Of a stretch of DNA of 64,000 nucleotides, positions 3 through 39,026 are shown one piece after another. The notes beneath the pieces are model-generated. The model searched no databases. It saw only the letters and a program-made list of their open reading frames with translations, and was not told the DNA's origin. The stretch is from Escherichia coli (GTDB taxonomy: Bacteria; Pseudomonadota; Gammaproteobacteria; Enterobacterales; Enterobacteriaceae): the NCBI RefSeq assembly GCF_013315695.1, contig NZ_CP054353.1. One strand, given 5' to 3'. The first letter of the stretch is position 1; each line of letters opens with the position of its first letter. The translations under genes were made by a program, and so were the position numbers.

Positions 3-585
3 CGTAATCATCTGGAAAACGTAGCCAACGCGCTCGATAAGCATTTGCAGTATAACGTCGACAAACTGATCTTTTTGCGTAATGGCATGCGCGAAGCTCT
101 CGTGGCGCCACTGGATTTCACCTCTCTGCGTAATGCCGTAACCGAGTTCGAACAGCATCGCGACGAGCACACCTGGCAAATCGAACTCAACCGACGGCGC
201 ACCCTGCCAGTCAATGGCGTATCGGATGCATTAGTCAGCGAGGGGAATCTCCTGTCTCGCGAAAATGAAAGCCTCGACAATGAAATTACCGCTGCACTGG
301 AAGTTGGTTACTTGCTGCGACTGGCGCACAACTCCTCGTCGATGGTTGAACAGGCGGTGTATGTCTCGCGTGCTGGATTTTACGTTTCGACGCTGCCGAC
401 CTTGTTTACGCGCAATGTACCAACGCGTTATTACGGCTATGTCACCCAACCCTGGTTTATCGGCCATTCACAACGAGAAAATCGTCACCGCGCGGTACGC
501 TGGTTCACTTCGCAACCGGAACACGCCAGCAATACTGAACCGCAGGTTACCGTCAGTGTTCCGGTAGACAGTAATAACTACTGGT
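3..585 (+). pseudogene. dgcQ: dgcQ (yedQ) diguanylate cyclase, 5' fragment interrupted by prophage insertion; gene start lies upstream of window
   Basis: Frame from position 3 reads [28 protein letters not shown]...VDSNNYW, matching the periplasmic N-terminal region of E. coli DgcQ as I recall it; reading frame leaves host sequence after NNYW and stops 13 codons later in phage DNA (track ORF 45..626). Confidence 0.85.
580..585. repeat. Left copy of 6-bp target-site duplication ACTGGT
   Basis: ACTGGT at 580..585 is repeated at 38077..38082; joining the flanks restores an uninterrupted dgcQ frame (..[11 protein letters not shown]..). Confidence 0.7.
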
Positions 586-631
586 TGATCAGACATGAGA
601 TAAATGAAGGGGGATCCGTGAGATAAATAAC
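586..631. repeat. Left terminal inverted repeat with two GAGATAAAT motifs (candidate transposase binding sites)
   Basis: tgatcagacatGAGATAAATGaagggggatccgtGAGATAAATA; reverse complement of the right end reads tgatgcgccgcGCGATAAATGcactctatcttgtGCGATAAATG, with motifs at the same offsets (11 and 34). Confidence 0.65.
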
Positions 632-946
632 GAATTGGAGTGGGTTAACATGGGTTCTGGTGAACAGAACTGAAATTCTTTTCCGCTATACGATAGATAA
701 GTCGGGCATTGAAATCATCCTTCCTGGCAACTTAGAATCGAGTTTGCTGAAACATGACCCGTAACAAAAAGGATGATTCCAATGACTACTCAAAACAATA
801 AGCATGACAGCCTGGATTACTCAGAAAAGCCCAAAAGCAAGCACATTGTGACGTTCGAGCGCGATTCCGGTAGAAAAGGAGAATCGTCTTCCTCTGCCAA
901 TAAAACCACTATGCCGGCAGCTCCTGCTCCAGGGAAAAAATAAACA

Positions 947-1657
947 TCATTCATCGTTCGTTGCACGAACGCGCCTGATCTCCACTCTGGCAATCTGATC
1001 TGCTGGAATATAGGTTGCCAGAGCTCCCCAGTACTTATCAACCACGCCTTTATACTCTTCCCATTCGTTACTTCCTGAAGGGCTGCTGTGCGTGACGTAA
1101 AGAACCATATCGCCTTTATTTCCCAGGGTAAACGGACCGTTAGGCCACTCTTCAAAGTTCCCTGGCAGCCGTGACATCATACCGGAACCATCGCGAAGAA
1201 TCACTCTGACCTCGGTGACGCTGAAGCCTGTTTGATCAAACATTGCCTGCCATGCTGAGCTGGTATTGTCAGACCATGAAATATCATTATTCCACAGTAA
1301 TCTGTACATCCATTTGCGACCGTACCTGCGCCACCACGCACCGCATGTAACGGCACACAGAAGTGCTGGGGGGGTTGCCAGCCAGGCATTCAGACCTGCC
1401 CACATAACAGCCTGGTAAGCCATCATTGCTGTCAGGCCAAAAATCAGCGAAGAAAAAGTCACCTCAATGGGTTTGTGGTGATCCTTCAGCCCCACATTCG
1501 CAATAAAATACCCAATATAGCCACTGGTCAGGGTCACCAGTGTTGCCCATGGCAGATTTAATAACGAAACGTCAAACATATTTTCTCCCGGCATCCTGAA
1601 TATTACATAGAGAGCATAAAAAAAGCACGGTAAAGGGTCTACCGTGCTCTTATACAA
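947..1657 (-). CDS. Hypothetical membrane protein (three predicted hydrophobic helices plus ~120 aa soluble C-terminal domain); last gene before the left prophage end
   Basis: Track ORF 236 aa; hydrophobic segments LPWATLVTLTSGYIGYFIANV, VTFSSLIFGLTAMMAYQAVMWAGL, ALLCAVTCGAWW; real start may be the internal Met (MFDVSLL). No family recognised. Confidence 0.5.
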   Translation of the reverse strand: MYKSTVDPLPCFFYALYVIFRMPGENMFDVSLLNLPWATLVTLTSGYIGYFIANVGLKDHHKPIEVTFSSLIFGLTAMMAYQAVMWAGLNAWLATPPALLCAVTCGAWWRRYGRKWMYRLLWNNDISWSDNTSSAWQAMFDQTGFSVTEVRVILRDGSGMMSRLPGNFEEWPNGPFTLGNKGDMVLYVTHSSPSGSNEWEEYKGVVDKYWGALATYIPADQIARVEIRRVRATNDE

Positions 1658-1693
1658 TAAGGAGATTTTTGAAAGGACTTTAACAAGCAGGAA

Positions 1694-2092
1694 TTATCTG
1701 GATTTGTTAACGTCTTTCGTCTCCTCTGGCAGATCTTCATCAAACAACCTGCCCTGCATCCGATCCAGTTCTTCTTTTCTGACCCGCTTAACCACGCTGT
1801 AGACCCACTGAAGCGAAACACCAAAATTGCGGGCCAGTTCGTGGTGGTTGCGTCCGTTAAACTCCCTGAAGATTTCCCGGTCGCGCTGACTGACCTTCCA
1901 TACCATGCCCATCGGGAAATAAACGTTTTGCCCGCCCCAGACCTGCATCATTCGGTTCGCGACGGCCTGACCAATCTGGTCGGCAATTGCGGGCTCAATA
2001 TCAATAATCTCGCGAACGGTCTCAGAGGTATGCTGTGCCAGTTCCACCAGGAGTTCCGGCCCTTTACTTCGAAACTGATTCAGGTCGCTCAT
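1694..2092 (-). CDS. mor: Mor/C-family transcriptional activator (middle operon regulator-like)
   Basis: 132 aa; resembles phage Mu Mor as recalled (..HHELARNFGVSLQWVYSVVKR.. C-terminal HTH); sits after the GemA-like gene as in Mu. Confidence 0.75.
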   Translation of the reverse strand: MSDLNQFRSKGPELLVELAQHTSETVREIIDIEPAIADQIGQAVANRMMQVWGGQNVYFPMGMVWKVSQRDREIFREFNGRNHHELARNFGVSLQWVYSVVKRVRKEELDRMQGRLFDEDLPEETKDVNKSR

Positions 2093-37359: not shown

Positions 37360-37425
37360 CGTTTATCTCTCAAATCCTCCCCACATTATCTCAGTACTTT
37401 AACCACTCAAAAGGGAGTATTTTTA

Positions 37426-37998
37426 ATGCTGATTGGCTACATACGTGTGTCAACAAATGACCAAAACACAGATTTGCAACGCAAAGCATTAATGTGCGCA
37501 GGATGTGAACAGATTTTTGAGGACAAAATGAGCGGAACCAAGTCGGAACGTCCAGGCCTGAAACGCGCTTTAAAGTGCCTTAAAAGAGGGGATACATTGG
37601 TGGTCTGGAAGCTGGATCGGTTGGGTAGAAGAATGAAACACCTCATTGCTCTCACAGAAGAGCTACGCGCAAAAGGTGTCAATTTTCGCAGTCTGACGGA
37701 TTCAATCGATACCAGCACTCCGATGGGAAGGTTCTTTTTTCATATGATGGGTGCACTGGCAGAAATGGAGCGTGAACTGATAGTTGAGCGCACGCTGGCA
37801 GGACTGGCTGCTGCGCGAGCACAAGGGAGAGTTGGAGGACGTCGCCCGAAACTGACGAAGGAGCAGCATGAGCAGATCGCAAGATTGCTCCAGAAAGGGT
37901 ATGACAGAAAGCGGCTGGCAATTATCTATGATATTGGACTGTCAACGATCTACCGCTACCACCCTGTTGGGACTGTCATAACGCAACCTGAAATGTAA
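37426..37998 (+). CDS. gin: Gin/Pin/Hin-family DNA invertase (serine recombinase)
   Basis: 190 aa from ATG 37426 (RBS aagggag); N-terminal MLIGYIRVSTNDQ with catalytic Ser, C-terminal HTH; adjacent to the inverted repeats. Track ORF extends to 37297. Confidence 0.85.
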   Translation: MLIGYIRVSTNDQNTDLQRKALMCAGCEQIFEDKMSGTKSERPGLKRALKCLKRGDTLVVWKLDRLGRRMKHLIALTEELRAKGVNFRSLTDSIDTSTPMGRFFFHMMGALAEMERELIVERTLAGLAAARAQGRVGGRRPKLTKEQHEQIARLLQKGYDRKRLAIIYDIGLSTIYRYHPVGTVITQPEM

Positions 37999-38030
37999 TT
38001 CTTTTTCAAATAATGAAACGCCGCGTGGAT

Positions 38031-38076
38031 GCCATTTATCGCACAAGATAGAGTGCATTTATCGCGCGGCGCATCA
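38031..38076. repeat. Right terminal inverted repeat with two GATAAATG motifs
   Basis: Reverse complement tgatgcgccgcGCGATAAATGcactctatcttgtGCGATAAATG mirrors the left end. Confidence 0.65.
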
Positions 38077-38082
38077 ACTGGT
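38077..38082. repeat. Right copy of 6-bp target-site duplication ACTGGT
   Basis: Identical to 580..585. Confidence 0.7.
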
Positions 38083-39026
38083 ATGGCGTGCTGGGGATGA
38101 GTATTCCCGTGCGTACTATGCAGCAATTTTTAAGAAACGCCATCGATAAAAACCTCGATGGTGAGTATCAGCTCTATGACAGTAAGCTGAGATTTTTGAC
38201 CTCTTCAAATCCTGACCATCCAACAGGGAATATTTTTGATCCTCGTGAACTGGCCTTGCTGGCGCAGGCAATGGAACATGACACGCGGGGCGGCATTCGT
38301 ATGGACAGTCGCTATGTTAGCTGGGAACGTCTGGACCATTTCGACGGTGTGCTGGTGCGCGTCCATACGCTAAGCGAAGGCGTGCGCGGCGATTTCGGCA
38401 GTATCAGCATTGCATTAACCCTGCTGTGGGCGCTCTTTACCAGCATGTTACTCCTCTCCTGGTATGTGATTCGCCGGATGGTCAGCAACATGTATGTTCT
38501 GCAAAGCTCGTTGCAGTGGCAGGCGTGGCACGACACCTTAACGCGTTTATATAACCGTGGCGCATTGTTCGAAAAAGCCTGTCCGCTCGCTAAATTGTGT
38601 CACACGCACCAACATCCTTTTTCTGTCATTCAGGTCGATCTTGACCATTTTAAAGCGATTAATGACCGCTTTGGTCATCAGGCGGGCGACCGTGTTCTTT
38701 CTCATGCTGCCGGATTAATTAGCAGTTCCTTGCGTGCGCAGGACATTGCCGGGCGGGTCGGTGGTGAGGAGTTTTGTGTGATTCTGCCAGGCGCGAATCT
38801 GACGCAGGCTGCGGAGGTCGCAGAACGTATTCGCCTGAAGTTAAATGAAAAAGAGATGCTGATCGCCAAGAGTACAACGATACGCATTAGTGCCTCGCTG
38901 GGGGTAAGCAGCAGCGAGGAAACCGGTGATTATGATTTTGAACAACTCCAGTCATTGGCCGACCGTCGGCTTTACCTCGCAAAACAGGCCGGGCGCAATC
39001 GGGTATTCGCGAGCGATAACGCTTAA
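38077..39026 (+). pseudogene. dgcQ: dgcQ (yedQ) diguanylate cyclase, 3' fragment (GGDEF domain) separated from its 5' part by the prophage
   Basis: Frame resumes ..[21 protein letters not shown].. and continues to GGEEF ([13 protein letters not shown]) and the native stop; track ORF 38088..39026. Confidence 0.85.

Follow-up and report, generated by a model that had tools for sequence, protein, structure and literature searches.

The stretch of DNA analysed here, referred to as the window, comprises 64,000 nucleotides of an Escherichia coli genome (contig NZ_CP054353.1, assembly GCF_013315695.1). It opens inside dgcQ, the gene for the diguanylate cyclase DgcQ, which synthesises c-di-GMP (cyclic di-GMP), a second messenger. 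Since the window begins within codon 56, codons 1-56 lie to its left and position 3 starts the first complete codon, codon 57. The gene is interrupted in codon 251, at W250|Y251, by a prophage, and resumes on the far side of the prophage to run to its normal stop. Full-length DgcQ cannot be made from this locus, as the open reading frame (ORF) is broken after codon 250 by 37.5 kb of inserted DNA. There is a high probability that this represents an ordinary insertional knockout of dgcQ by a transposable prophage.

The boundaries of the insert can be drawn to the nucleotide. The same 6-bp sequence, ACTGGT, stands at both junctions, and in silico removal of positions 586..38082 yields an uninterrupted dgcQ of 1695 nt and 564 codons. 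The restored protein differs from K-12 DgcQ at 13 of its 564 residues. MS 21-1, a closely related strain, has an intact dgcQ with which the restored gene agrees at all but one of its 1695 nt; in MS 21-1 the empty site reads AACTACTGGTATGGCG and contains a single copy of ACTGGT. The exact restoration of the ORF and the match to the empty site are far beyond chance. An initial annotation, made from the letters of the window alone, had proposed that a prophage splits dgcQ so that no functional full-length enzyme is produced, and both junctions and the restored ORF agree with this. On the left side, the 5' fragment continues through 13 phage-encoded codons after position 585 to a stop at 624-626, thus forming a chimeric ORF.

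A split gene might instead be an artefact of assembly or a chimera. However, identical junctions are found in four complete genomes that were assembled independently and in hundreds of draft contigs, and the insert is flanked by the clean 6-bp duplication typical of the element. No point in support of an artefact was found, its probability is close to nil, and it was rejected.

By its gene content and its ends, the insert is an intact-looking transposable prophage of the BcepMu/B3 type, integrated by transposition at a non-specific site. All 50 coding sequences annotated in the copy carried by strain AF3 are open in the window. In addition to the transposition and regulatory genes listed in Table 1, the prophage encodes Gam, a lysis cassette and a full myovirus head and tail set. 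The heptamer GATAAAT, a putative transposase-binding site, stands twice at each end, 14 and 37 positions from the tip and in inverted orientation, with 11 occurrences across all 64 kb. For the transposase, identity to the protein of Escherichia phage PhiKM is 99%, to that of Burkholderia phage BcepMu 68% and to that of Pseudomonas phage B3 56%, and phage Mu is not among the 69 phage records that matched it in a tblastn search of a phage collection.

The duplication has the same length wherever it was compared in this phage family. Five of five independent insertions have one of 6 bp: ACTGGT in dgcQ, ACATGG in gudD, GCTGGC in ptsP, ACAAAT in yqhA and GCGCCG in yfiB. The phage left end is also found beside many other, unrelated genes in E. 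coli genomes. Phage Mu in the strict sense (Muvirus) was considered as the identity of the insert and ruled out, given that no Mu record appeared among the transposase matches and that the duplication is 6 bp rather than 5 bp long. Transposable phages of the BcepMu type, with their 6-bp duplications, thus emerge as active mutagens of E. coli chromosomes. They may not be confined to chromosomes: a query spanning the left junction (291-890) gave 107 matches on plasmids, which suggests that the phage left end or copies of the whole phage occur there.

Table 1. Features of the interrupted dgcQ locus, the prophage and the neighbouring genes (positions in the window)
Feature	Position	Strand	Details
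dgcQ 5' fragment	3..585	+	codons 57-250 and first base of codon 251; coding for TM1, for the region that Pfam matches to CHASE7 and for the greater part of the membrane-distal dCache module
Target-site duplication, left copy	580-585		ACTGGT
Prophage (insert)	586..38076	+	37,491 bp; 5'-TGATCAGAC...GCGCATCA-3'
Left phage end	586..628	+	TGAT tip; GATAAAT at 599-605 and 622-628, putative transposase-binding sites
Mor-family middle-gene activator	1694..2092	-	PF08765, E 3.6e-43
MuB-like AAA+ DNA transposition protein	5545..6711	-	phrog_296, E 2.2e-93; AAA_22
DDE (rve) transposase	6722..8491	-	589 aa; PF00665; phrog_310, E 3e-147
Helix-turn-helix (HTH) repressor-like gene	10020..10481	+	divergent from the early operon
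Invertible tail-fibre segment	35752..37362		229-nt inverted repeats at 35752-35980 and 37134-37362
gin-type serine DNA invertase	37426..37998	+	190 aa; last phage gene; PF00239 and PF02796 (Resolvase and HTH_7)
Right phage end	38034..38076	-	ATCA tip; GATAAAT at 38057-38063 and 38034-38040 (minus strand)
Target-site duplication, right copy	38077-38082		ACTGGT
dgcQ 3' fragment	38082..39026	+	Tyr251 to stop, TAA 39024-39026; dgcQ sequence again from 38077; predicted content: orphan last strand of the distal module, proximal module, TM2 and GGDEF, no TM1
Candidate in-frame starts			GTG 38088, ATG 38097, GTG 38109, ATG 38118, ATG 38271, ATG 38301
Junction k-mers of the allele			AATAACTACTGGTTGATCAGACATGAG and GGCGCATCAACTGGTATGGCGTG
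dsrA	40034-40120		intact
rcsA	40756-41379		intact; dsrB also intact

Members of the family vary in their accessory regions. Between the repressor and the holin, the prophage has a cargo slot of low GC content (0.43) at 10478-12650 with three ORFs (PHROGs 10002, 12025 and 3787), for which PADLOC, Pfam, NCBIfam and PHROGs give neither a known function nor a defence system. The N-terminus of the first of these ORFs is weakly similar to Flk, with an E value of 3e-12 that falls far short of the cut-off. Relatives of the prophage have a Dam methylase module at the position of the cargo slot. A relative adjacent to yfiB in E. coli C51 (NZ_CP127306.1) is without gin and the invertible segment; its right-end sequence is the same and it is flanked by a 6-bp duplication.

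The position of the cut within DgcQ determines what the two fragments could encode. In the restored protein, Pfam recognises two domains: CHASE7 at aa 41-227, which falls on the 5' piece, and GGDEF at aa 398-557 (PF00990, E 2.6e-47), which falls on the 3' piece. By hydropathy, the first transmembrane helix (TM1) spans about aa 20-45 and the second (TM2) about aa 357-380. A library of 1.8 billion proteins holds only 148 representatives of the N-terminal 395 residues, and each full-length relative aligns as one stretch across the whole of this region. An AlphaFold model built from 23 sequences (predicted local distance difference test, pLDDT, 86.9; predicted template modelling score, pTM, 0.76) begins with a long stalk helix, continues with two PAS-like modules, the first membrane-distal and the second membrane-proximal, and then reaches TM2. 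A Foldseek search with this model retrieved dCache domains over about 315 columns with a probability of 1.00, among them Tlp3 (4XMR), Mlp24 (6IOU), PctA/B, the tandem Cache domain of PscC (6MNI) and an Aeromonas diguanylate cyclase (7K5N); at the level of sequence, no solved relative of the DgcQ periplasmic region turned up in the PDB. The sole annotation of this region has been CHASE7; the model confidently presents it as a complete ligand-binding dCache domain of about aa 45-356.

The insertion point falls at the start of beta-strand 249-259 of the distal module, within the family-wide motif (T/S)ASVPVDxxxxW|YGVLxMDF, also written in the shorter form SVPVDxxxYW|YGVL. As the cut lies inside the beta-sheet of the modelled dCache domain, the sensor itself is severed and not simply detached from the GGDEF domain. 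The initial annotation had placed the periplasmic sensor and the GGDEF domain on separate fragments. This is correct for the CHASE7 match and for GGDEF, but not for the sensor as a whole, since a single dCache domain is itself divided between the two pieces. Nor would a product of the 3' fragment be the cytoplasmic GGDEF protein that had been envisaged; it would consist of a broken periplasmic piece, TM2 and GGDEF, with no TM1.

The sequence of events can be pictured as follows. In an ancestor of the strain, a temperate phage of the BcepMu/B3 type, with a life style like that of Mu, would have entered codon 251 of dgcQ through DDE transposition, and the integration step would have created the 6-bp target duplication. 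The 5' piece retains the native promoter, with a product made up only of TM1 and an incomplete dCache sensor. The 3' piece has lost its promoter, start codon and TM1, and would most likely be silent or give rise to traces of product. The outcome would be a stable and effectively irreversible insertional knockout. Induction does not lead to the excision of Mu-type prophages (PMC3562280), and the knockout should therefore be effectively permanent rather than a reversible switch. Active lysogeny, in which the gene would be switched back on by excision, was accordingly excluded as an explanation: the annotation of the prophage contains neither a tyrosine integrase nor a large serine integrase, and transposable prophages do not excise.

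The consequences for the cell are expected to be limited. Deletion of dgcQ in strain ATCC 25922 lowered c-di-GMP by 17% (PMC12367115), and the 3' part of dgcQ in that strain is identical to that in the window. The expected phenotype is a drop, presumably of modest size, in the DgcQ-dependent output of c-di-GMP (cellulose, biofilm), with no new function.

The arrangement at the right end of the prophage bears on the fate of the 3' fragment. The product of gin matches the structures of Mu Gin (4M6F and 3UJ3) with an E value of about 1e-92, and the gene ends 78 bp from the phage tip. Next to it, the inverted repeats of the invertible segment enclose alternative tail-fibre C-termini and one fibre-assembly gene. 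The orientation of the segment in the window is that of strain AF10, and it is opposite in AF3, MSB1_4I and AF14, all with identical host junctions; the inversion crossover was mapped to 35755-35834. Shared junctions in four complete genomes imply descent from one insertion, and inversions among the descendants of one insertion imply that inversion took place within the lysogenic lineage, and hence that Gin is made in lysogens. Gin is therefore active in lysogens of this lineage. The outer edge of the repeat arms matches the 26-bp gix site of Mu only loosely, at 17 of 26 positions.

Several details of the tail-fibre region deserve a brief description. The single fibre-assembly (chaperone) gene of the segment, at 36228-36842, is on the minus strand in the orientation of the window, which leaves the expressed fibre ORF (34431-36221) without a chaperone gene after it. 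Three genes make up the invertible segment of a relative in EC11. The tail-fibre gene contains, at 34665-35585, a 168-bp tandem repeat of 5.5 copies with 92% identity, which codes for a repeated 56-aa unit.

Given the activity of Gin, it is conceivable that transcription of gin or of the late phage genes reads out of the right end and that an internal start (GTG253, ATG256, and so on to ATG314 or ATG324) then yields a truncated, active protein with TM2 and GGDEF. The locus would in that case be rewired, not inactivated, and its product would lack a sensor and still make c-di-GMP. We regard such read-out as improbable, and the same applies to a rewired locus. The initial annotation had pointed in this direction, noting that the 3' fragment lies downstream of gin near the prophage end and retains an in-frame Met at position 38088. 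The first observation holds, as gin is upstream on the same strand at the short distance given above. The second does not: position 38088 holds GTG, the codon for Val253, and ATG does not appear in frame before 38097 (Met256).

The candidate starts offer little encouragement for translation. The anti-Shine-Dalgarno pairing energy is -2.8 kcal/mol at 38088, -4.3 kcal/mol at 38097, where the G-run abuts the ATG, and between -2.2 and -6.5 kcal/mol at the remaining starts, compared with -7.9 kcal/mol for gin and -6.8 kcal/mol for the native dgcQ start. Every candidate start of the 3' fragment is thus predicted to have a Shine-Dalgarno sequence that is weak or badly spaced. The best of them belongs to ATG 38301 (Met324; -6.5 kcal/mol), from which only about 33 residues would precede TM2, a point in favour of read-out; at none of the starts is the Shine-Dalgarno sequence well placed. 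Upstream, a TAG at 38049-38051 closes the dgcQ frame, which makes a fusion of gin to the dgcQ remnant impossible. The stop codon of gin is 90 nt upstream of the first start codon and in another frame, so that translational coupling does not come into play.

Signals for transcription were sought between 37000 and 39200 with crude consensus scans. No sigma-70-like promoter was found where 2.2 were expected by chance, in a scan that also failed to detect the promoter of gin, and no intrinsic terminator was predicted on the plus strand. The interval between gin and the phage tip folds as a hairpin without a U-tract, and the C/G profile downstream of gin was uninformative as to Rho-utilisation sites. 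Nothing in these data indicates that the 3' half is expressed, and it is most likely silent or expressed only in traces.

Some observations do weigh against a silent remnant. Gin is certainly expressed in lysogens, no terminator stands between gin and the remnant, and the scans for promoters and terminators were crude enough to miss the promoter of gin itself. The GGDEF domain, its RAQD I-site and its GGEEF active site are intact in the 3' fragment. There are also precedents for truncated DgcQ proteins: a Shigella dgcQ with a stop at codon 56 and a Met at codon 59 raised c-di-GMP when over-expressed (PMC11327459), and a restart product was proposed for the yedQ stop alleles of enteroaggregative E. 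coli (EAEC; PMC4287979). Unlike the remnant described here, however, these published alleles are under their native promoter, with a restart codon lying 2-3 codons past the stop.

Further considerations make a functional product doubtful. An untranslated leader is likely to be prone to Rho-dependent termination in E. coli, and any protein made would begin with a broken piece of the dCache domain and have no TM1. Genes for invertases of the gin type are weakly expressed, as is established for Mu, which also counts against read-out. Read-through from gin is possible on the evidence of the sequence, and efficient translation with correct membrane insertion of the remnant is unlikely. A physiologically meaningful product from the 3' fragment consequently has a low probability. 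The most specific form of the idea, in which constitutive transcription of gin drives low-level synthesis of a sensor-less TM2-GGDEF protein, for example from Met324, is very improbable. If it were true, a ligand-gated diguanylate cyclase would have been turned into a weak, signal-blind one, and lysogeny would have rewired c-di-GMP signalling in a widespread lineage of extraintestinal pathogenic E. coli.

The knockout allele has spread well beyond the strain studied. Both junctions are present in four of 5426 complete E. coli genomes, namely AF3, AF10 and AF14, from blood cultures in the United Kingdom (UK), and MSB1_4I, from a rectal swab in Australia. The exact 263-aa chimeric ORF was found in 692 contigs (NCBI, ENA and Logan) and 1176 index blocks, and the records include KTE69, KTE143 and one metagenome scaffold. 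In each of the contigs that were inspected (24/24), the chimeric ORF lies in the same context. On these grounds the allele appears to be clonally inherited from one insertion and to be common in public assemblies. By comparison, dgcQ is present in 5363 of the 5426 genomes and contiguous in 5331. A literature search for the dgcQ::prophage allele and for strain MSB1_4I found nothing relevant.

The fliC gene is identical to that of UTI89, S88, IHE3034 and APEC O1, and the flanking 21 kb are 99.9% identical to these strains, which we take to belong to the ST95 (sequence type 95) complex. The strain therefore appears to be a member of the B2, H7 lineage of the ST95 complex, with the ST95 assignment being indirect. 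A natural, stable dgcQ knockout would thus mark a widespread sublineage whose flanking DNA matches that of ST95-complex strains. Over the flanking 21 kb, MS 21-1 is 100.0% identical to the window and can serve as a natural, near-isogenic dgcQ+ comparator. Its dgcQ and fli genes are intact, and it carries a closely related prophage in ptsP (NZ_CP146670.1), with the same Gin and tail-fibre proteins, that is interrupted by ISEc10.

A second lesion lies further along the window. A copy of the insertion sequence IS1 (41754-42521; flanks 41665-42716) has the last 86 nt of fliR directly on one side and, on the other, the region downstream of yedK, and stands in place of 14,999 bp of MS 21-1, which hold an ompC-like porin gene, ybcM, ybcL, emrE, fliE, fliF-fliQ and most of fliR. 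From this gene content, the strain should be non-flagellate through the IS1-linked loss of fli genes. The deletion is common to AF3 and MSB1_4I and absent from AF10 and AF14; as it occurs in only part of the carriers, it must be later than the insertion in dgcQ.

The spread of the allele raises the question of whether the loss of DgcQ was selected in an extraintestinal pathogenic lineage and was then followed, in one sublineage, by the IS1-mediated loss of flagellar basal-body genes. The allele is widespread, with records from UK blood cultures, the Australian rectal swab, KTE strains and a metagenome, in a species where dgcQ is otherwise nearly universal. Independent dgcQ lesions are also known elsewhere, as nonsense alleles in EAEC and Shigella and as a 3.1-kb deletion in Nissle 1917. 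However, a single insertion hitch-hiking in a successful clone gives the same picture. The phage shows no convergence on dgcQ, its other insertions being in unrelated genes, and deletion of dgcQ has a small effect on the c-di-GMP pool. Selection is therefore an unlikely explanation. It should be said, against the view of a simple knockout without benefit, that neutrality and an advantage would both fit the wide spread of the allele together with an intact prophage. An ordinary knockout would not in itself be surprising: gene disruption by Mu-like phages is textbook knowledge, and loss of diguanylate cyclases in pathogenic E. coli has already been documented.

Around dgcQ, the gene order (yodC side, dgcQ, yedP, dsrA, yodD, dsrB, rcsA) is the same as in K-12, and the insertion has left the genes from yedP to rcsA undisturbed. 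The initial annotation had drawn attention to the insertion being next to the dsrA/rcsA stress and capsule regulon. These genes are indeed nearby and intact, but the proximity merely reflects the ancestral order and supports no link. A functional connection to dsrA/rcsA was ruled out on account of the intact genes, the ancestral order and the convergent yedP that lies between.

Among known lesions of dgcQ, the alleles of EAEC of the O104:H4 type and of Shigella flexneri (dgcQ/yedQ) come closest. They too are natural lesions in the part encoding the periplasmic sensor, with the GGDEF region and downstream in-frame ATGs intact, and truncated products have been discussed (PMC4287979) or shown on over-expression (PMC11327459). 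They differ in that each is a point nonsense mutation, read from the native promoter and followed 2-3 codons on by a restart ATG, whereas the promoter here is 37.5 kb away. The features of a restart are likewise missing here, the nearest upstream ORF being gin, in another frame, and the nearest starts being without ribosome-binding sites. Nissle 1917 (NZ_CP022686.1) is, like the present strain, a B2 strain with DgcQ destroyed at the same locus. There, however, the cause is a 3.13-kb deletion and not a phage, and what remains of dgcQ, up to about nt 1233, is fused to the tip of fliR. Relative to K-12, this deletion takes the GGDEF-coding end of dgcQ together with yedP, dsrA, yodD, dsrB and rcsA.

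The closest sequenced phages are Escherichia phage PhiKM (PQ738613), Escherichia phage Phi06_2974 B and Klebsiella phage KP12. PhiKM is 96% identical at the DNA level over 55% of the first 20 kb. The modules of the PhiKM group differ from those of the prophage, and independent E. coli prophages of the family have Dam methylase cargo in place of the three unknown ORFs found here. A literature search found no publication on phages of the PhiKM type.

With BcepMu (NC_005882) and B3, the prophage shares a transposase gene in the same place and orientation near the left end, and the identities of 68% and 56% extend over the full length of the protein. The general layout, with a leftward early operon and a rightward late operon, is also common to them. 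The differences lie in the host, which here is E. coli, and in the right end, which here has a gin gene and invertible segment of the Mu type. At the DNA level, similarity to phages of the BcepMu/B3 type is limited to gam, where about 100 bp match Pseudomonas phage H72. The length of the target duplication of BcepMu was not found in a literature search.

Phage Mu itself resembles the prophage in its DDE transposition at essentially random sites, its TG...CA ends and its repeated transposase sites, as well as in having a MuB-like ATPase, Gam, Mor, and Gin with an invertible tail-fibre segment beside the right end. In contrast to Mu, the prophage has a transposase of the BcepMu/B3 lineage, has its early genes on the strand opposite to the late genes, and has no com/mom behind gin. 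Transposition of Mu has a 5-bp target stagger and leaves a duplication of that length (PMC3562280), as against the 6 bp seen in all five insertions here. Insertions of Mu are extremely stable and are not excised on induction (PMC3562280), and stable, polar insertion is a further feature common to Mu and this element.

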